DNA of 64,000 nt from Trueperaceae bacterium (GTDB taxonomy: Bacteria; Deinococcota; Deinococci; Deinococcales; Trueperaceae): contig JAXHNB010000002.1 of the NCBI GenBank assembly GCA_034520945.1, forward strand, positions 128,001 through 192,000. Reading direction: 5' to 3'. Both the position numbers and the translations under genes were made by a program. The notes under the pieces are model-generated. The model saw nothing but the letters and a program-made list of their open reading frames with translations, was not told where the DNA came from and made no database searches. This document shows, piece by piece, positions 42,195-49,173 of this stretch. Every line of letters begins with the position of its first letter. Position 1 is the first letter of the stretch.

Positions 42195-42542
42195 GCGACC
42201 GACGTGTACGACGGGCTGGACGTGCTGGTGAACAACGCCGGCGTGATGGACGCGTTTCAAGGCGTGGCCAGCGTGGATGACGACACCTGGCAGTGCGTGC
42301 GGCCATGCCTGCGGCGCTCATGAAGGCACGGCGGCGGCTCGATGGACGCGCCGGCAGCCGGTTCGGCCGGCGCCGCCTACACGGCGTCCAAGCACGGCCT
42401 GATCGGCCTCACCCGCAACACCGCCTTCGTGTACGCCAAACGCGGGGTTCGCTGCAACGCCATCGTGGTGGGCGGCGTGCACACGAACATCGCGTCCAGC
42501 ATGGACATGAGCAAGGCCGACGCCGGCTGGACCGCCGCGTAG
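42195..42542 (+). pseudogene. Fragmented SDR oxidoreductase remnant
   Basis: GLDVLVNNAGVMD fragment and, in another frame, AYTASKHGLIGLTRN...RCNAI. The N-terminal TGxxxG.G motif is missing and the frame stops early. Confidence 0.8.
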
Positions 42543-42592
42543 TCGTCGGCCACGTACGTGCATCGCCGCCCTCTCGTTCTCGGCCGACTCTC

Positions 42593-42820
42593 TCAGGACC
42601 GAGCCGTGATCGTCGAGACGTCGTATGGCATCACGGCTGGGTCGTGCGTCACTACGGTCAACCCCTCCGTGCGAGCTTGGGCGACCAGCATGCGATCGAA
42701 GGGATCGCGATGGTGGTTCGGCAGGTTCCCAACGGCCAACGCATGCTCGCTGGTGACGTCGAGCGGCGTGAAGCGGTAGTGCGCGAGCATCGCGAGGTAG
42801 TCACGCGGCGCGGCCTTCAA
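42593..42820 (-). pseudogene. vapC: N-terminally deleted VapC (PIN-domain) toxin
   Basis: Keeps HHRDPFDRMLVAQA...VT.D but lacks the N-terminal LLDT and S..E segments. Confidence 0.8.
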
Positions 42821-43049
42821 CGGCGTCCAAGACGTCGTCGGGGAGGGGCGCGTCGAAGTCGTCAGCGATGGCGATGCGTCCCGCCCAATAGCCGTGCGAC
42901 AGATCGCGGGGACGGTCGTCGGCCTGAACCACGCTCAGGCGCACCAGTGGGCGCCCGGCGCGGGCGATGACCACCTCCTCGCCGGCCAGCGCTTGGTCGA
43001 CGAGGCGCGAGAGTTTCGCCTTCGCTTCGGTAATGTTGACGATCCGCAT
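42801..43049 (-). CDS. Phd/YefM family antitoxin
   Basis: VNI.EAKAKLSRLV....GEEVVIARAG.P.VRL...G.I.IADDFD.PLP pattern; GGAGG RBS. Confidence 0.92.
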   Translation of the reverse strand: MRIVNITEAKAKLSRLVDQALAGEEVVIARAGRPLVRLSVVQADDRPRDLSHGYWAGRIAIADDFDAPLPDDVLDAVEGRAA

Positions 43050-43671: not shown

Positions 43672-44006
43672 GGGGACCTCCGTCCCTCAGCGTAGCGCCG
43701 AAGCGCGGGTCCCACGCGTCTCCTGCGAGGCCGTCCAAGACCGGAGATGAGCCATGTTGTCGCGTTTGGGACGGCTCCGGGGGTGGGACGAATTTCCCTG
43801 TTGGCGCGCGGTGTACCCCCGGTAGCGTTCCTGTGTACGCCTGATGAGGAGCCTTGCATCGGCAGCGCGCTCCGGGCGTTCGGGCCTGCGACCCGTAACG
43901 GTCATCACTGGGTTCGGAAAGGAGGGGTTCTGGAGGACGTCGTGTCGTTTCCAGAAGCAACAACGCACACGCTGTCAATGCAATGCCCACTCGAAGGGAG
44001 TCCGCA

Positions 44007-44513
44007 ATGAACCGATTCGTCAAGACCATGACGGCGCTCGTCGCCGCCACTACGCTCCTCGGCGCCGCCTGGGCCCAAGGCTTGGGGGAAGACCTCACCG
44101 TCCGCATGGGCGAGATGTACTTCCAGATCGAAGGTCAGGAAAAGAACGCGCCGATCGAACTCGAAGCCGGCGTGCCCTACCGCATCACTTTCGTCAACGA
44201 AGGCGACGTGGAGCACCGCGTCAAGTTCGGCCGTAGCGTCGAGGCCGAAGAAGGCGTCCCCTTCGACTACGCCGAGCACCTGTTCGACGGGGTGTTCACG
44301 CGCGCGACCGGCATGGCCGGCAACCGGCAATTCTCGGTCGACACCGGTCAGCTGCTGGAGCTCGACGTGCAGCCCGGTGCCGTGGTGCTGGTCAGCTTCA
44401 CGTTGCCGACCTCCACGCGGGGCGAGTGGGAGATCGGCTGCTTCGTCCCCGCGACGCGTGACACGCCGAACCACTACATCGCCGGCATGCGCGCTCCGCT
44501 CATCATCGAGTGA
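44007..44513 (+). CDS. Exported cupredoxin with type-1 copper ligands (CopI/plastocyanin-like)
   Basis: Signal peptide ending AWAQ; F.N.G..EH and GEWEIGC-x10-H-x4-M give the His, Cys, His, Met ligand set. Confidence 0.82.
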   Translation: MNRFVKTMTALVAATTLLGAAWAQGLGEDLTVRMGEMYFQIEGQEKNAPIELEAGVPYRITFVNEGDVEHRVKFGRSVEAEEGVPFDYAEHLFDGVFTRATGMAGNRQFSVDTGQLLELDVQPGAVVLVSFTLPTSTRGEWEIGCFVPATRDTPNHYIAGMRAPLIIE

Positions 44514-44545
44514 CGTCGCATACCACAAAACGAACGGGAGAATTC

Positions 44546-45904
44546 ATGATGAAGGTACGCATTTTCATTCTCAGCCTGAGCATCGCCGCCTTGGCAATGT
44601 TCGGCGCCGCTACGGCGCAGGACGACGGCGACTGGGCCACCGAGTGGTCCGACATGGTCAACGTGCACCTGTTGGCCGACCTCGATTCCTCCGGTCCGCC
44701 CGCGTGGGATCCCGAAGAGCACCCGGACGTGTTCATCACCACCGAGGGCATGGGCTACTCCGGCCTGATGGGCTCGCCCAACTCGCCCGGCCTGGCGATC
44801 ATCGACGCCAACACCTACGAGCCCGTCGCGTCGCAGAGCTACGAGCTGGAAGGCGCCGACGAGTACTTCGAGCCGCACGGCCTGGGCGTCTCGTCCGACG
44901 GCCGCTGGATCTACCTGCCGACCGGCACCAGCCCCGGCTTCGGTGCCGTGGGGACCGGCCGCTTGCTCATCATCGACGCCTACACGCTCAAGATCGACAA
45001 GATCCTCTCCACGCCTACCAACCCCCACCACGCCAAGAGCTTCACCCACGCCGATGGGCGCGAGCTGGTGTTGGCCTACACCTTCCGTGAGGGTGGGTTC
45101 TACATCCTCGACCCCAACGACGACAACCGCATGGTCGGGAGCGTCCCCAACCGCGAGCTGCAGGGCAACGGCTATCTCGCCTTCACCACCCCCGACGGGG
45201 AGTACCTGCTGATCAGCACGCGTCCCCCCTCCGGCGTGGACGCCCACGGGTTCGTGTCGGTCATCGACACCGAAACCTGGGAGCTGGTCCGCAACATCGA
45301 GGTGCTGGACTCCGATCCCATCTGGATCGCCATCACCGCCGACGGAAACGAAGCGCTCGTGACGGGCGGGCACGACAGCAACCTGACGCGCCTGTCGCTC
45401 GAAGGGGACGTCTCCGACTGGCACGTCGACGGCGCCGCCAACGCGGCCGCGCTCGGGCCCTACGGCGTGCACTACAACTGGGACGAGGACCGCGCGTTCG
45501 TGGTCAGCAAGGGCGAAGCCACCCACAACCGCGGCATCACCCTCGGCGAGGTGAACCCCGTCATCATGCAGCCTCCGCCCCTGCACTCCTGGGCGCCGGG
45601 TCCCGTCGCCACGCACCACACCGCTTGCATCCGTGGCGACCACGGTACCGTGCACCCGGACATCGACCGGGACGAGCTGTGGATCACCTGCAACGGTAGC
45701 TTCGAGATCGTCGTGTTCGACATGTTCGCCAAGGAGGTCAAGGAGCGCATCCCCATGCCGAACGGGGGCAGCACGCACTCCGGCGCCTTCGTTCACTACG
45801 AGGCCGACCCGATGGCGTCGACCGAAGGCACCGTCCTGTCGGACCAGAACGGCATGCACGGTCCCGCACTGCAGACCAAGCGGGAGATCCTCGGTCTCGA
45901 ATAG
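44546..45904 (+). CDS. Exported His-rich beta-propeller protein (YncE/cd1-d1/NosZ-propeller-like fold), function unknown
   Basis: Signal peptide ending ATAQ; repeated blades (PHGLGVSSDGRWIY, LLIIDA.T, TPDGEYL, VSVIDTET, PIWIAITADG, IVVFD). About 19 His; no CxxCH. Confidence 0.75.
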   Translation: MMKVRIFILSLSIAALAMFGAATAQDDGDWATEWSDMVNVHLLADLDSSGPPAWDPEEHPDVFITTEGMGYSGLMGSPNSPGLAIIDANTYEPVASQSYELEGADEYFEPHGLGVSSDGRWIYLPTGTSPGFGAVGTGRLLIIDAYTLKIDKILSTPTNPHHAKSFTHADGRELVLAYTFREGGFYILDPNDDNRMVGSVPNRELQGNGYLAFTTPDGEYLLISTRPPSGVDAHGFVSVIDTETWELVRNIEVLDSDPIWIAITADGNEALVTGGHDSNLTRLSLEGDVSDWHVDGAANAAALGPYGVHYNWDEDRAFVVSKGEATHNRGITLGEVNPVIMQPPPLHSWAPGPVATHHTACIRGDHGTVHPDIDRDELWITCNGSFEIVVFDMFAKEVKERIPMPNGGSTHSGAFVHYEADPMASTEGTVLSDQNGMHGPALQTKREILGLE

Positions 45905-45919
45905 ACCGGCGGAACGCTC

Positions 45920-45945
45920 GGTGGGGAGGCGCGCGCCTCCCCACC
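45920..45945 (+). terminator. Intercistronic palindromic stem-loop after the propeller gene
   Basis: ggtggggaggcgcgcgcctccccacc is a perfect 26-nt palindrome. Confidence 0.6.
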
Positions 45946-45968
45946 CCCTTCGGAGGGAGTCCAGCACC

Positions 45969-46571
45969 ATGACCACGAGTTCCTATGTTCGTGTCGCGAT
46001 TCTTGCCCTCTTGATGCCGTTCGCGTTCCTTGCGTCGGCGCAGGAGGAGGCGCCCGACCCGGAGTTGGTCAAGCGCGGGCAAGATCTTTACTACAACGTG
46101 GCCGGAACGGGCTGCGTCACCTGTCACGGCGTCGCGGGCCTCGGCGACATCGGCATCGGCCCGAACATCCGCGGCGTGCCGGTGGTCCGCATCGAGGGCG
46201 CTCTGGATGCTGCCGAGGAGATGGCGTTCCTGCATCCGGTGCTCAGCGAGGACGACCTGGTGGCGCTGGAGGCCTACCTGGCGTACGTCGAAACCCTCGT
46301 TCCCGCCACGACCACCGTACGCGGTGGTGCGTTCCAACCCGACGAGGTCAGGTTGCCTGCCGGCCAGCAGGTGCAGTTGATCGTCGACAACGGAAACCGC
46401 TCACCCTGCACCTTGGTCGTCGACGGTGTCGACGTGCAGGCCACCATCGACGGGCGCAGCACCGGCGACGTGTCGTGGACCACCGGCAGTGCCGGTACGC
46501 AGACCGTGGCCTATTGCCAGGACGAGCCCGACGTCCAACTCACGGTTCGCATCGTCGAACCCGAGGAGTGA
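45969..46571 (+). CDS. Exported class I cytochrome c fused to a C-terminal cupredoxin-like domain
   Basis: Signal peptide ending ASAQ; G..LY...CVTCHG..G.G..GP and a distal Met (EEM); then F.P..V.LPAG..V.L...N...C...YC cupredoxin-like domain. Confidence 0.85.
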   Translation: MTTSSYVRVAILALLMPFAFLASAQEEAPDPELVKRGQDLYYNVAGTGCVTCHGVAGLGDIGIGPNIRGVPVVRIEGALDAAEEMAFLHPVLSEDDLVALEAYLAYVETLVPATTTVRGGAFQPDEVRLPAGQQVQLIVDNGNRSPCTLVVDGVDVQATIDGRSTGDVSWTTGSAGTQTVAYCQDEPDVQLTVRIVEPEE

Positions 46572-46575
46572 GACC

Positions 46576-47586
46576 ATGACGAGCCTGACGCGACGACTGG
46601 CGGGCCTCCTGATCGTGGTCGCCCTGGTGATGGGCGCTGCGATCGCACAGGACGACCATTCGGACGACGGTGAGGCGGAAGCCCTCACCATGAACGAGGC
46701 CATGCAGATGCTCACGCGCAGCGGAAGGGTGCCGCTGGCCGACGAGCACGACCACGACCAGATTCACGTCGACGTGCTGTACGCGCACCCGATCGTGTAC
46801 CGCTCGGGCGGCAACGAAGTGCCCGAGGCGGTGTACGAGGGCGACGAAGTGATCGTGTTCGTCACCGAGAACATCCACGCCGGCGAGTTCAGCTGGGATC
46901 CGGTCAAATTCGACCTGTACGTCGACGGGCGCGGCCCCATCGCGCCGGTGCGGTCCGAACAGGTGTCGCCCGACCCGCACCACCGCGCCACGCGGCACCA
47001 TTACCGCCTGGAGGAGGGCGAGGGCCCGCTATTGCGCAGCGACAGCTCGCGCTTGGAGCTGCGGCCCCAGGCCGGCAGCAGCAAGGCCGAGTTCGCGTGG
47101 GATCTCCCGCTCGAACTGGGCGAGGTGCGCTTCCACGGCCTCGAACCCACCGATGAGCCCCTCGACCTGAGCGACGCGCCGGTGTTGCGCGTCGAAGCGA
47201 CCGAAGACACCTACGTGCACTCGGGCCTCGTGGTGCCGGTGGGCGAGCCCGTCGTGGTCTTGTTCCGCAACGACACCGACGACGAACACCATTTCCACGT
47301 CCTGGACCTCGCCATCGACGGCACCATGCGCTGGCTCCAGACCGCGGGCGAGGCCGACCTGTTCACCGACGCCGAGCTGCGCCAGGCCACCCAGCTGCCC
47401 GACCACATCTGCGACAGCGACAGCGGCATCTGCCCCACGGGGCAGAGCGTGCACCTGCACGCCAACCCCCACGGGTCCGATGCGATCGCCTTCGTGCCGA
47501 AGGAGGTCGGCACCTTCGAGGTGGTGGACCCGCTGTTCCCGGAGCGGAGCGCGGAGTTCGAGGTCGTCGCCGGGGACGCTGGCTGA
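46576..47586 (+). CDS. Exported His-rich two-domain protein with a C-terminal cupredoxin-like domain (candidate metal chaperone)
   Basis: Signal peptide ending AIAQ; EHDHD, ENIH, DPHHR, RHH, VPVGEPV...F.N....EHHFH, HIC-x5-C, VHLHA and F.P...GTF. Confidence 0.65.
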   Translation: MTSLTRRLAGLLIVVALVMGAAIAQDDHSDDGEAEALTMNEAMQMLTRSGRVPLADEHDHDQIHVDVLYAHPIVYRSGGNEVPEAVYEGDEVIVFVTENIHAGEFSWDPVKFDLYVDGRGPIAPVRSEQVSPDPHHRATRHHYRLEEGEGPLLRSDSSRLELRPQAGSSKAEFAWDLPLELGEVRFHGLEPTDEPLDLSDAPVLRVEATEDTYVHSGLVVPVGEPVVVLFRNDTDDEHHFHVLDLAIDGTMRWLQTAGEADLFTDAELRQATQLPDHICDSDSGICPTGQSVHLHANPHGSDAIAFVPKEVGTFEVVDPLFPERSAEFEVVAGDAG

Positions 47587-47633: not shown

Positions 47634-47670
47634 AGCGACCTGCGTAGGGACGGTTTCTGCGCAGGTCGCT
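47634..47670. terminator. Stem-loop between the convergent copper operon and GST gene
   Basis: agcgacctgcgtag...ctgcgcaggtcgct forms a 14-bp stem with one G-U pair. Confidence 0.6.
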
Positions 47671-48376
47671 ATCGTTCGTCGTCGAGCGATTCGAGGTCGG
47701 ATGCTCGGGGTGCGGTCGAGCGCCATTGTGCGAAGGGGACGCCCACGGTGTCCCGACTCACCATCACGGCCGGGCGAGTGTCGAGGCTGGCCAGCCACGA
47801 CCCGAGACGGGGCAGGTCGGTGTCGGGCAGCCCGAAGCGCCGGTAGCCGGACAGCCACGCGTACACGCAAACGTCGGCGGCGGAGGGTCCAGGAAGGTCA
47901 GGGGCTGCCACGATCCATCGGCCGCCGGACCGCTCGAGCGCCTCTTCGACGGCATGTAGATGCCGGCGCCCCTCCGCGAGCAGGGTCTCCGCGCGGACGT
48001 GATCGATGCCCGCCTCAGGCGGCTCGATCAACTGCCAGTACAGGTGATGGCTGACGTCCCGAAGGGGACCGCTGGACCAGTCGATCCACGTCAGGACGTC
48101 ACGGCGGGCGCGTTCGTCGGCGGGAAATGAGCGTGGTTCGGGATGGGCCACCTCGAGGTGCAGCAGAATGTCCAGCGAGTCCAGGTGGGCGCCGTCCTCA
48201 TCGAAGTAGGCAGGGACCTTTCCTCGGGGATTCAGTGCGAGGTAGGCGGCCGTCTTTTGCTCCCGGGTCCTCAGGTCGATCTCGACACGGTCGAACCGCA
48301 CGCCCTTTTCGTGCAGGGCGATGGATACCTTGAAGCAGTGCGGGCTCCGGCGCGAGCTGAACAGCGTGGGGCGCAT
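47669..48376 (-). CDS. Glutathione S-transferase family protein
   Basis: SP.C.KV.I.L.EKG, Y..LNP.GKVP, DS..IL.HL and S.AD motifs. Confidence 0.9.
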   Translation of the reverse strand: MRPTLFSSRRSPHCFKVSIALHEKGVRFDRVEIDLRTREQKTAAYLALNPRGKVPAYFDEDGAHLDSLDILLHLEVAHPEPRSFPADERARRDVLTWIDWSSGPLRDVSHHLYWQLIEPPEAGIDHVRAETLLAEGRRHLHAVEEALERSGGRWIVAAPDLPGPSAADVCVYAWLSGYRRFGLPDTDLPRLGSWLASLDTRPAVMVSRDTVGVPFAQWRSTAPRASDLESLDDER

Positions 48377-48387
48377 CGGGTACGGCA

Positions 48388-49173
48388 TCATGCAGGCGCG
48401 ACTGCGCGCCACACGCGCAACCAGTTGGCGTACGCGAGGTCGCGTAGGGCGGGTTCTTCATGGCCGGCCTTGCGGAGCACGTCGAGGACCTTGGGTAGAC
48501 CACGGGCGTCGCCGATGGCGTCGAGCACGTCCCAGAAGCCCGCTTCGGTGAGGTGCGAGACGTCGAGCAGCACGCCCAGGCGCTCGCAGGCCGCTACCAG
48601 TTCCCGGCCCAGGTCCGTCAGGCCGGGACCAAGGTCGGGCGTGGACGGAAAGGCGAGGGGGACGCCATGGGCGAACGCGTTCGGTCGGCTCCAGGCGAGC
48701 CCCAGCGAACGCACGCCGCGGTCGTACAGGGCGGCGAGTGTTTCGAGGTCTGGATCGATGGCGTCGGCCCCTTCCACGTGGAGGGCGGCCGCCAGCACGT
48801 CGTCGCGGAGGCACGATTCTGCCTCGTCCGGATGCGTCACCACGCGAACGCTGCCGCCCGACGTGGCGGCGAACTCGTGCAGCCAATCGGCCATCGCGTA
48901 CACGTGCCGGCGCGCGACGGCGGGATCCAGGGCGGGCGGGAGTGGAAGCTGGTAGCGGCCCGTATCGTCCGTGTGCGCGGCGAAATCGTTGGGGGCAACC
49001 TGCGAGGGGACGAAGGCCGAGAAAAACCCGCCGGCCATGCCCCCTTCGCGCATGCGGGGGAGATCGAGGTGCCCCTCGTCGCCCTTCGCGAGCACGTCTC
49101 GCTGCCCGCTGCGTTCCGGCCAGCGAACGACGGTCAGCAGGTCGTTGTGGCCATCGAAGACAGGAATCGTCAT
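48388..49173 (-). pseudogene. Membrane dipeptidase (peptidase M19) with a large in-frame internal deletion
   Basis: FDGHND, HLDLPR, HVEG, W.R.N and DVSHL...GFWDV run directly into IGD..GLP...NWLRV. The HSN and GSDFDG segments are absent. Confidence 0.8.

Follow-up and report, generated by a model that had tools for sequence, protein, structure and literature searches.

Thiocyanate dehydrogenase (TcDH; EC 1.8.2.7; PDB 5f75) is a homodimer of seven-bladed propellers with three copper ions in the central tunnel, and its physiological acceptor is putatively a cytochrome c552 encoded apart from the propeller (PMC9456337). Export is by the Tat pathway (PMC6504805), and copper-handling genes lie beside it (PMC9456337, PMC6504805). 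Lactonase-type propellers can also carry N2O reductase chemistry, as two reports describe for L-NosZ (PMC11033732, PMC13477213). NosZ is likewise a propeller with inner-strand His ligands, and in the quinohaemoprotein alcohol dehydrogenases and in methylamine and aromatic amine dehydrogenase (MADH and AADH, with amicyanin or azurin) a periplasmic propeller delivers its electrons either to a cytochrome c fused at its C-terminus or to a cupredoxin and cytochrome of its own.

Here we describe four genes (g1–g4; Table 1) within a window of 64,000 nucleotides from a Trueperaceae genome. All lie on the + strand, tightly packed and separated by 32, 64 and 4 nt, which bears out the co-orientation reported in an initial annotation; a GGAG-type ribosome site lies 5′ of every start. 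Searches of family and structure databases and of the literature found no characterised operon or family equal to this system, as that annotation had anticipated, and the system shows none of the hallmarks of NosZ, cd1 nitrite reductase or methylamine dehydrogenase, as it had also stated. We put at roughly 0.55 the probability that the operon represents an undescribed family of propeller oxidoreductase that uses copper in the periplasm and is wired to a cytochrome c and a cupredoxin, and so probably a copper redox enzyme of a new type. All four proteins are predicted to be exported, each N-terminus having a hydrophobic stretch that ends in AWA-QG (g1), ATA-QD (g2), ASA-QE (g3) or AIA-QD (g4). 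The earlier description of Sec-type leaders agrees with these AxA-Q ends; the g4 leader contains T-R-R-L-A-G, a weak twin-arginine look-alike that is absent from both full-length homologues.

Table 1. Features of the operon and its flanks (window coordinates).
Feature	Position	Strand	Basis or context
Divergent intergenic region, 335 nt	43672..44006	.	Upstream of g1
g1, type-1 (blue) cupredoxin, 168 aa	44007..44513	+	Ligand motif, homologue profile
g2, YVTN/lactonase-type β-propeller, 452 aa	44546..45904	+	AF2 model, fold matches
g3, monohaem class-I cytochrome c + cupredoxin-like domain, 200 aa	45969..46571	+	Cytochrom_C match, CxxCH
g4, two-domain β-sandwich protein, His/Cys-rich, 336 aa	46576..47586	+	Fold matches, alignments
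Perfect hairpin, 17-bp stem	47634..47670	.	Between g4 stop (47586) and convergent GST gene stop (47669)

By its sequence, g1 is a single-domain type-1 cupredoxin, as originally annotated, with H70, C145, H156 and M161 as predicted ligands. A profile of eight homologues matches AcoP (2.2e-6) and a blue copper domain protein (7.4e-5), as well as auracyanin and the T1 sites of ceruloplasmin; H70, C145 and H156 are invariant in the alignment, and the position of M161 is Met in six of the eight sequences and His in two. The cytochrome half of g3 scores above the Cytochrom_C cut-off (24.6 bits against 21.3) and has a C49-x2-C52-H53 haem motif with axial M85; each of 30 homologues keeps both CxxCH and Met85. 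The other half falls just under the cut-off of Cupredoxin_1 (26.7 bits against 27), and across the same 30 homologues it retains only C183. Because a conserved His is absent, this half lacks the type-1 ligand set; the proposed fusion of a cytochrome c to a cupredoxin-like domain is correct, but that domain has no copper ligands.

The AF2 model of g2 (mean pLDDT 88.1, pTM 0.89) and its 19 histidines among 452 residues (4.2%) agree with the His-rich β-propeller first proposed. No Pfam or NCBIfam model matches g2 at its cut-off, Me-amine-dh_H and the PQQ Pfam models included, nor does its sequence match any solved structure. The top fold matches are seven-bladed YVTN/lactonase propellers, and the fold is generic: metal-free or unrelated propellers lead the ranking (1l0q, Z 32.8; lactonases, Z about 30), with an S-layer YVTN propeller, 6-phosphogluconolactonases and YncE among the closest. 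NosZ (2iwf) ranks 13th (Z 26.8, 330 residues aligned, rmsd 3.5) and TcDH (5f75) 33rd (Z 25.5, 329 aligned, rmsd 3.0); both are among the fold matches with the longest aligned stretch. The Foldseek matches also include the heavy chains of AADH and MADH, but g2 shows no PQQ or TTQ features, and no light-chain or mauG-like gene occurs among the window's ORFs around the operon. Tested for membership, g2 falls outside NosZ (10.5 bits on the NosZ model, whose cut-off is 625), L-NosZ and cd1 nitrite reductase; in the test for TcDH it fails on the Tat signal, its leader being Sec-type. In source annotations its relatives are called 'YncE family' or 'hypothetical'.

Within 24 close relatives of g2 (45–74% identity), H111, H161, H162, H327 and H366 are invariant, and at least 90% keep H59 and H411; C361, C382, E109, K322, E324, R363 and D365 are also invariant in the family. 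When the alignment (16 rows) extends to relatives of 26–31% identity, H111, H161, H162, H366 and H411 are still invariant. DSSP analysis of the AF2 model shows that in successive blades the invariant histidines lie on the innermost strand, at its start, or immediately ahead of it; judged from these strand positions only, they would face into the central tunnel and together bind a multinuclear copper site. The invariant K322, E324, R363 and D365 around these histidines suggest catalysis over storage.

Both TcDH and NosZ share with g2 an inner-strand His cluster. The TcDH active-site set comprises K103, H135, H136, Q156, H206, E288, D314, H381, H437, H482, H528, D529 and R544, in which H135/H136 form an HH doublet; g2 too has one (H161/H162), though not necessarily at the same place in the blade order. 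NosZ too has an HH doublet, together with a motif of the E-P-H/P-H-G type, as in g2. In a profile alignment of 47 columns, H411 of g2 is paired with one of the CuZ His of NosZ (E 0.0024, probability 12%; below significance), and the best alternative hhalign alignment places H162 on that same His (probability 18%; below significance). The E-P-H-G motif of g2 aligns, again below significance (E 0.067), with the His-x5-D-G-K motifs of 8q9x, which together with 8yu5 we take to be a TcDH homologue. A profile of the C-terminal His-bearing part of g2, searched against the PDB, found neither NosZ nor TcDH, and every sequence link from g2 to these two enzymes lies below significance.

The g2 family is widespread in uncultured bacteria. 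It forms 95 representative clusters (E<=1e-30), and we surveyed 61 loci in species genomes, all MAGs, from at least seven phyla. Of the 61, 52 also encode a g3-like cytochrome, which lies directly downstream of g2 or is fused to it in 50, lies upstream in two, and shares a single ORF with the propeller in 10; CxxCH is present in 20 of the 120 best g2 homologues, and distant relatives have a fused C-terminal cupredoxin (H...C-x-x-H-P-x-M motif) or cytochrome c. The g4 N-domain/DsbD_TM protein occurs in 35–40 of the 61 loci, SCO1/SenC in 16, two families resembling the copper chaperone YtkA in 10 and nine, and an HMA-like protein in one; a second, His-less propeller paralogue, in which the five invariant His of g2 are absent, is often present. 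Thus the survey supports linkage of g2 to the cytochrome, the g4 N-domain and copper chaperones, but not the idea of the four genes as a conserved set: g1 homologues lie directly upstream of g2 relatives in only five loci (L002–L006), and the complete g4 architecture was found in only two other proteins. The term 'self-contained', used initially, does not fit either, since most relatives add a DsbD/CcdA-type domain, SCO1/SenC or a YtkA-like protein. SCO1, YtkA-like and DsbD-type genes are absent from the window's operon, and SCO1 is encoded elsewhere in the same genome. The target of the SCO1 and YtkA-like proteins might, however, be cytochrome oxidase or the cupredoxins rather than g2.

The cupredoxin fold that had been assigned to g4 as a whole applies to its C-domain (residues ~196–336), which resembles 4hcf (Z 10.2), AcoP (Z 9.8), FtrB (Z 9.2), the copper chaperone CupA (Z 8.7) and the EfeO N-domain (Z 8.4). 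It contains H-F-H, H-L-H and C-x7-C motifs but has lost the type-1 site Cys and His retained in its two full-length homologues. The N-domain (about 40–185) is a second β-sandwich with invariant H101, H135, H136 and W175, the three histidines being invariant over 25 sequences. Elsewhere this domain is fused to a DsbD/CcdA-type membrane domain that keeps P-C and G-C-x-x-C; in the window, a soluble cupredoxin-fold domain replaces that membrane part. In contrast to the DsbD alpha and gamma domains, the g4 N-domain has three invariant His and no Cys. The combination of DsbD_TM with conserved Cys, SCO1/SenC and YtkA-like genes in g2 loci recalls the CcdA/DsbD, ScoI (SCO1/SenC) and YtkA(CtaK)/PCuAC systems that assemble copper sites.

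In the proposed copper oxidoreductase, g2 would be the catalytic subunit, its tunnel histidines holding a multinuclear copper site comparable to CuZ of NosZ or the three coppers of TcDH. A built-in electron-transfer domain is absent from g2, as from TcDH, and electrons would pass between its site and the respiratory chain via g3, an apparently obligate partner that is frequently fused to the propeller; in the Trueperaceae lineage of the window, g1 may also join this path. g4 would be the soluble version of a conserved helper. We predict that this helper serves in maturation, handling copper or thiol redox state, and loads the propeller, perhaps at a site that includes the invariant cysteines C361 and C382, and that it acts beside SCO1/SenC or YtkA-like chaperones where those occur. 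As to direction, we lean slightly, and tentatively, towards a TcDH-like dehydrogenase that would oxidise a small inorganic or organic sulfur or nitrogen compound and hand electrons to cytochrome c; the alternative direction, reduction of N2O or NO, appears somewhat unlikely.

A CuA-less N2O (or NO) reductase, in which a CuZ-like cluster is reduced in trans by g3 and g1 and finishes denitrification without nosZ, would suit the window's genome, in which two NirK genes pass the curated cut-off and NosZ is lacking. It would also suit the absence of a full-length NosZ match from 45 of 50 g2-bearing genomes, the adjacent DosS/DosR-like (10 and 13 loci) and Crp/FNR-type (two loci) regulators and the weak alignments of g2 His with CuZ ligands. 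Clade III/L-NosZ reportedly has N2O reductase activity (He et al., Nature 2025). Clade III clusters reportedly do without canonical nos accessory genes and lie near cytochrome genes (PMC13477213). However, the CuA motif occurs in none of the four proteins nor in 120 g2 homologues, DXHH and GPLH in none of those 120 and GXHH in four, the NosZ model stays far under its cut-off, and the hhalign probabilities are just 12–18%. In contrast to NosZ, the electrons for g2 would come from a cytochrome c, whether separate or fused, and those for distant relatives from a T1 cupredoxin. The window's genome also has no NosD above cut-off and no NosL. Because NirK occurs in only nine of the 50 genomes, g2 is not enriched in denitrifiers, and full-length NosZ is itself present in five; MAG incompleteness weakens each of these absences. 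We consider this reductase quite unlikely. A TcDH-like enzyme whose tri-copper tunnel site takes thiocyanate or some other reduced sulfur compound (sulfide, thiol, methanethiol) as the substrate to be oxidised, with cytochrome c as acceptor leading to the aerobic chain, is similarly improbable. TcDH shows the proposed anatomy, with a copper-in-tunnel propeller that has no internal electron-transfer domain, a separate c-type cytochrome as putative acceptor and adjacent copper-handling genes (PMC9456337, PMC6504805); the 5f75 fold match and the weak motif alignment with 8q9x/8yu5 agree with this, and g2 hosts, going by record titles, belong mostly to aerobic or facultative lineages. A TauE-family gene occurs in one locus and rhodanese in four of 61, and because it is only four the sulfur hint is thin. 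Sequence similarity to TcDH is not significant (E 0.067–0.35), g2 lacks a twin-arginine leader such as that of the Tat-exported TcDH (PMC6504805), the partner cytochrome of the g2 family is often fused, and its accessory set is g4-N-domain/DsbD_TM, SCO1 and YtkA-like proteins rather than CopCD or Cus.

Copper homeostasis, in which the His-lined propeller and g4 would sequester or oxidise Cu(I) in the periplasm and electrons would drain into the cytochrome and cupredoxin, could explain why all recognisable accessory proteins are copper-related (SCO1, YtkA-like, HMA-like, cupredoxins) and the likeness of the g4 C-domain to CupA, FtrB and EfeO; the clan of the DsbD-type domain also takes in metal transporters. 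Yet no CopA, CusCBA, CueO or CopCD type genes are among the recurrent g2 neighbours, tight cytochrome c fusion is unusual for metal sequestration, and the invariant charged residues around the His suggest catalysis, all of which makes this reading very unlikely. Less probable still is a propeller without copper that serves for binding or as a scaffold, or is a lactonase/YncE-type hydrolase using Ca, Zn or Fe, with neighbours only loosely related in function: the closest folds and the 'YncE family' labels point that way, but fusion to cytochrome c or a T1 cupredoxin in many lineages, a gene order kept across phyla and the absence of the five invariant His from the paralogue of the same loci argue against it.

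At the 5′ flank, what had been called a long leader is the divergent intergenic region, beyond which a macro-domain gene runs opposite to g1; the region has no Rfam match at E<=1, and a scan of it for sigma-70-like sites found none. The strong closing hairpin, in contrast, is real: the 104-nt tail that bears it folds at −54.9 kcal/mol (z −4.85), with none of 200 shuffles equally stable. It lacks a T-run and was not detected by a consensus terminator scan; lying between two convergent genes, it is possibly a bidirectional terminator.

The most economical explanation for the operon formed by g1–g4, to which we give a probability of roughly 0.55, is that it encodes a periplasmic copper oxidoreductase in which the g2 propeller is wired to a cytochrome c and a cupredoxin. 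The active site would be a His-lined, probably multi-copper centre within the tunnel of the propeller, linked to the respiratory chain by a dedicated cytochrome c and, in the window's lineage, also by a blue copper protein. The four genes are separated by gaps of 32, 64 and 4 nt, each start is preceded by a GGAG-type ribosome site, and the hydrophobic leaders of the products end in AWA-Q, ATA-Q, ASA-Q and AIA-Q, respectively. Upstream, the 335-nt divergent intergenic region contained neither an Rfam match nor a recognizable sigma-70-like site. Downstream, the 104-nt tail that follows g4 has a folding energy of -54.9 kcal/mol (z -4.85), and a perfect hairpin lies between g4 and the next gene; the sole site returned by a consensus terminator scan falls inside g4, one hit being below the chance mean of 2.3.

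Coordinates of the operon, its surroundings and the comparison loci (window positions unless a locus, L, or the window's own genome, G000, is named)
Feature	Position	Strand	Description
Gene and toxin remnants	42342-43049		66-aa short-chain dehydrogenase (SDR) fragment, truncated PIN toxin, Phd/YefM antitoxin; just upstream of macro-domain gene
g1	44007-44513	+	cupredoxin, 168 aa
g2	44546-45904	+	propeller, 452 aa
g3	45969-46571	+	cytochrome c fusion, 200 aa
g4	46576-47586	+	His/Cys-rich two-domain protein, 336 aa
Terminator-scan site	47237-47254		inside g4
Hairpin	47634-47670		perfect 17-bp stem, between g4 and convergent GST gene
GST gene	47669-48412	-	convergent with operon
GST gene, Woeseia locus	L021:11392-12150		between SCO1 and TauE-family gene
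Second propeller	L026:9504-10619		proteobacterial locus
Second propeller	L021:9478-10671		proteobacterial locus
Second propeller	L011:10631-11800		proteobacterial locus
Kinase and regulator	L036:3101-5616		GAF-GAF-HisKA_3 kinase and LuxR-type regulator, same orientation as propeller gene
Tandem g2 paralogues	L038: 1-651, 2479-3513, 4068-5306		one contig
NirK gene	G000:C6:270521-271399		outside the window; one SCO1/SenC gene adjoins it
NirK gene	G000:C2:102949-103860		outside the window

The propeller itself belongs to no family that we could name. Pfam assigned none to g2 (best DUF5074, E 0.034, and NHL, 0.088), every best NCBIfam match was far under its cut-off, and the best match of the sequence in the PDB was at E 0.05. 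Relatives are called 'hypothetical', 'YncE family' or 'mono/diheme cytochrome c family protein', the ESM Atlas holds solely 'hypothetical' or YncE-type clusters, and a full-text literature search found no paper describing the family. The AF2 model is of high confidence (pLDDT 88.1, pTM 0.89), and its top fold matches are seven-bladed YVTN/lactonase propellers (1l0q, Z 32.8; 6-phosphogluconolactonases, Z about 30); the longest aligned stretches, at lower Z, are with the nitrous-oxide reductase NosZ (2iwf, Z 26.8, length 330), selenium-binding protein (2ece, Z 26.7, 329) and thiocyanate dehydrogenase, TcDH (5f75, Z 25.5, 329).

Conservation patterns within this fold suggest where a metal centre could lie. 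Among 24 relatives of 45-74% identity, H111, H161, H162, H327, H366, C361, C382, E109, K322, E324, R363 and D365 are invariant, and H59 and H411 are conserved at 90% or more. In the model's secondary structure, successive blades carry H111, H161/H162, H366 and H411 at their first (inner) strand or immediately ahead of it; these would be the positions from which NosZ and TcDH draw their copper ligands. More distant relatives (26-31% identity) carry, in addition to the propeller, either a C-terminal cupredoxin with an H...C-x-x-H-P-x-M blue-copper motif or a cytochrome c. Across the wider set H111, H161, H162, H366, H411, D87, D189, D365, K322, Y123, Y210 and N383 are still invariant, and H327, H59 and the Cys pair are not. 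What stays the same throughout is therefore a propeller with five His, accompanied by a one-electron carrier.

Two such carriers are encoded beside g2 in the window. The g1 product has the His/Cys/His/Met ligand set of a type-1 (blue) cupredoxin; in an alignment of eight homologues H70, C145 and H156 are invariant, and position 161 is Met in six and His in two. Its profile matches AcoP (2.2e-6), a blue copper domain protein, auracyanin and the T1 sites of ceruloplasmin. The N-terminal half of g3 is a monohaem class I cytochrome c (Pfam Cytochrom_C, 24.6 bits vs a cut-off of 21.3), and the haem-binding CxxCH and distal Met (C49, C52, H53, M85) are kept in 30/30 homologues. The C-terminal half of g3 scored 26.7 bits against Pfam Cupredoxin_1, below the cut-off of 27, and does not contain a type-1 ligand set: over the same number of homologues there is no conserved His, and C183 is the sole invariant residue. 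This cupredoxin-like domain therefore has no standard copper site.

A word-indexed search found 312 g2 relatives at E≤1e-3 among 8000 candidates scored, and an exhaustive profile search returned 2788 representatives at E≤1e-3, 300 at 1e-10 and 95 at 1e-30. Scanning one genome per species yielded 61 loci with a g2 relative, all in MAGs, attributed by record title to Trueperaceae, Chloroflexota, Acidimicrobiaceae, Woeseiaceae, Arenicellaceae, Alpha- and Betaproteobacteria, Myxococcota, Fraserbacteria and Acetothermia; the family spans no fewer than seven phyla of uncultured bacteria, whose habitats are sediment, groundwater and salt pans. A g3-like cytochrome c is present at 52 of the 61 loci, directly downstream of the propeller or fused to it at 50 and upstream at 2; 33 of the ORFs carry a cupredoxin-like domain, 18 are cytochrome-only, and at 10 loci propeller and cytochrome form a single ORF. 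CxxCH occurs within 20 of the 120 best g2 homologues. At nine loci the cytochrome match is absent, and several of these contigs stop within a few hundred bases of g2. The g1 cupredoxin is found at 5/61 loci, in the closest relatives only.

The neighbouring genes also include candidates for cofactor assembly. At 35 (by blastp) to 40 (by clustering) of the 61 loci there is a ~470-aa protein composed of an N-terminal membrane anchor, a periplasmic domain homologous to residues ~40-185 of g4 and a DsbD_TM domain (2e-14 to 1.7e-10) with conserved P-C, C and G-C-x-x-C motifs. SCO1/SenC is encoded at 16 loci, and two families of YtkA-like proteins at 10 and 9. The recurrence of SCO1/SenC, YtkA-like and DsbD/CcdA-type components points to thiol-assisted copper insertion, for which the C361/C382 pair, invariant in the 24 closer relatives and located beside D365-H366, would be a candidate target. 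Rhodanese (4/61) and Crp/FNR-type regulator (2/61) genes are rarer. A second, His-less propeller of ~370-400 aa was matched by blastp at up to 21 loci, a count that includes a few cross-matches to g2 itself; at proteobacterial loci, including the three tabulated, it is flanked by the DsbD-fused gene and SCO1. Profile comparison makes it distantly paralogous to g2 (hhalign probability 90%, E 1.4e-6), and its C-terminus is a conserved C-H. The window lacks this protein, which may act in maturation or as a second subunit. GAF-GAF-HisKA_3 kinases occur at 10 loci and LuxR-type response regulators at 13; at L036 and 9-12 other Chloroflexota-type loci the two lie directly 5′ of the propeller gene, an architecture that we take to be that of DosS/DosR-type gas or redox sensors.

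The periplasmic domain common to g4 and the ~470-aa proteins contains an invariant H101, H135, H136 and W175 (25 sequences), and g4 would be the soluble counterpart of this conserved three-His helper. Its predicted fold consists of two beta-sandwich domains (mean pLDDT 78.4), the second of which (about 196-336) matches copper-binding cupredoxins (4hcf, Z 10.2; AcoP, Z 9.8; FtrB, Z 9.2; CupA, Z 8.7). Over its full length g4 has a loose likeness to two adjacent multicopper oxidase domains (TM about 0.3); we rejected assignment to that class because there is no Cu-oxidase Pfam match and only H-F-H and H-L-H are present of the four HxH-type motifs. Assignment of g4 as DsbD/CcdA was likewise rejected, since the window's copy has no membrane (DsbD_TM) domain. 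The only two full-length g4 homologues found, P0122 and P0123 (42% identity), keep a C-terminal type-1 motif, C-P-I-H...M, whose Cys and His are lost in the window's g4; the latter still has H-F-H, H-L-H and C-x7-C, and it alone among the three has T-R-R in its leader. A complex prediction for g2 (26-452) with the g4 N-domain (36-190), using their own alignments, scored 0.10 against a mark of 0.32, in a run without controls, and so speaks neither for nor against a contact.

The same features can be read as a third, CuA-less route of N2O (or NO) reduction, in which a His-lined lactonase-type propeller with a copper or copper-sulfur cluster would receive electrons from cytochrome c or blue copper, in trans or fused, and DsbD-like/SCO1 maturation would replace NosDFYL; we consider this improbable. 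Its nearest printed precedent is the clade III 'lactonase-type' NosZ (L-NosZ), whose discovery paper is He et al., Nature 2025. Two reports describe clade III NosZ as combining a lactonase-like propeller and a cupredoxin domain (PMC11033732, PMC13477213); nosDFLYX lies beside it in the first, and the second describes it without canonical accessory genes, with cytochrome and transporter genes nearby. The g2 product scored 10.5 bits (E 0.13) against the clade I/II NosZ model TIGR04246, which has a cut-off of 625, and was rejected as a member of those clades. The CuA site, CX2FCX3HXEM, is absent from g1-g4 and from 120/120 g2 homologues. The CuZ His motifs were not recovered: g2 has a single E-P-H-G site (residues 109-112), and counts in the 120 homologues were PHG 110, EPH 109, GXHH 4, DXHH 0 and GPLH 0, the first two reflecting that one shared site. 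These motifs are the ones given as the L-NosZ filter in bioRxiv 10.64898/2026.07.10.737647, and g2 was set against L-NosZ by quoted motifs and published descriptions. Aligned by hhalign with four NosZ sequences from g2-bearing genomes, the family reached a probability of 12-18%, with g2 H411 or H162 placed on the second CuZ His of NosZ in these weak alignments. PDB profile searches with the whole, N-terminal and C-terminal g2 family gave no significant NosZ or TcDH match. The window's genome (97% complete) has no NosZ above cut-off, a best NosD match of 25.9 bits vs a cut-off of 300, and no NosL match. Two NirK (copper nitrite reductase) genes above the curated cut-off lie elsewhere in this genome. 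Among 50 g2-bearing genomes (six loci being left out), full-length NosZ is present in 5 and NirK in 9; these counts are uninformative, neither supporting nor excluding a link to denitrification. None of the five NosZ matches is in a MAG titled Woeseiaceae, a bacterial family described as being without nosZ. Assignment of g2 as a cd1 nitrite reductase or haem d1 propeller was also rejected, as Cytochrom_D1 (PF02239) gave no match at E≤1 and likeness to NirS, NirN and NirF is at fold level only; the Chloroflexi chimeric NirS (PMC8756737) is a cd1 nitrite reductase outside the g2 family.

Within the copper-propeller oxidoreductase that we prefer, we lean slightly towards a TcDH-like dehydrogenase over an N2O/NO reductase. 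The entries 8q9x and 8yu5, deposited as 'Twin-arginine translocation signal domain-containing protein' and presumably TcDH homologues, gave only sub-threshold sequence alignments with g2 (E 0.067-0.35), and the C-terminal g2 profile found no TcDH-type match in the PDB. PMC9456337 describes TcDH as a homodimeric enzyme of seven-bladed propellers whose central tunnel holds three Cu, with cytochrome c552 as the proposed physiological acceptor. PMC6504805 adds that it is Tat-exported, with copper-transport genes alongside, and that its active-site set is K103, H135, H136, Q156, H206, E288, D314, H381, H437, H482, H528, D529 and R544. TcDH and g2 have a design in common, but g2 has no Tat motif (its leader, MMKVRIF..., is without twin arginine) and no significant sequence similarity, and the 5f75 match is one of overall fold.

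N2O reductase and thiocyanate dehydrogenase, whose chemistry matters for greenhouse-gas and sulfur/cyanide cycling, are the only propeller enzymes that we know to hold multinuclear copper in their central tunnel. The g2 family, in which we infer copper, would be a third, similar in general design, without sequence kinship to the other two, and served by an obligate cytochrome c and by maturation proteins of its own. Spread over seven or more phyla, it would therefore bring a new route of metallo-cofactor assembly, and a probable new reaction, into environmental redox cycles. Were it a CuA-less N2O/NO reductase, many 'truncated denitrifiers' would be hidden N2O sinks, among them the NirK-positive, NosZ-negative Trueperaceae-like genome and marine-sediment Woeseiaceae. 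The operon in the window, with four soluble exported products and nothing in the membrane, is more compact than any other form found and so offers a practical start for heterologous expression.

The distribution of the family is patchy. A sample of 200 more genomes of the window's phylum contained 2 with a g2 relative at E≤1e-30 (same family 2/40, same genus 0/3, other families 0/160). A quick maximum-likelihood tree of 57 sequences has two clades, one with Chloroflexota, Deinococcota, Actinomycetota and candidate phyla and the other with Pseudomonadota and Myxococcota; one sequence from Fraserbacteria falls inside Trueperaceae with full support. The flanks are functionally unrelated to g1-g4: upstream are inositol catabolism genes, the SDR fragment, the toxin-antitoxin remnant and the macro-domain gene, and downstream are GST, M19 dipeptidase and a peptide ABC system. 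Patchy spread, upstream gene fragments and a toxin-antitoxin remnant fit an accessory cassette that moves between lineages. The truncated PIN-domain toxin is 75 aa long and covers only profile positions 56-112 of 120. GC over the operon is slightly low (0.66-0.685 vs about 0.70-0.73 upstream), and downstream bins are no higher; together with the gene and toxin remnants, this slight dip could mark a site of insertion or rearrangement. The GST gene beside the system in the window and at the Woeseia locus is probably there by chance, because the adjacency is seen at 1/61 loci. The propeller gene is present as two or three paralogues in some genomes, arranged in tandem at L038, and two genomes of the window's taxonomic family (G235, G239) have two copies each. 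No RNA run is among the sequencing runs listed as holders; the DNA runs listed are two from one salt-pan sample, possibly the source (shares 0.87 and 0.82), and three sediment runs from a second study (0.25-0.48).
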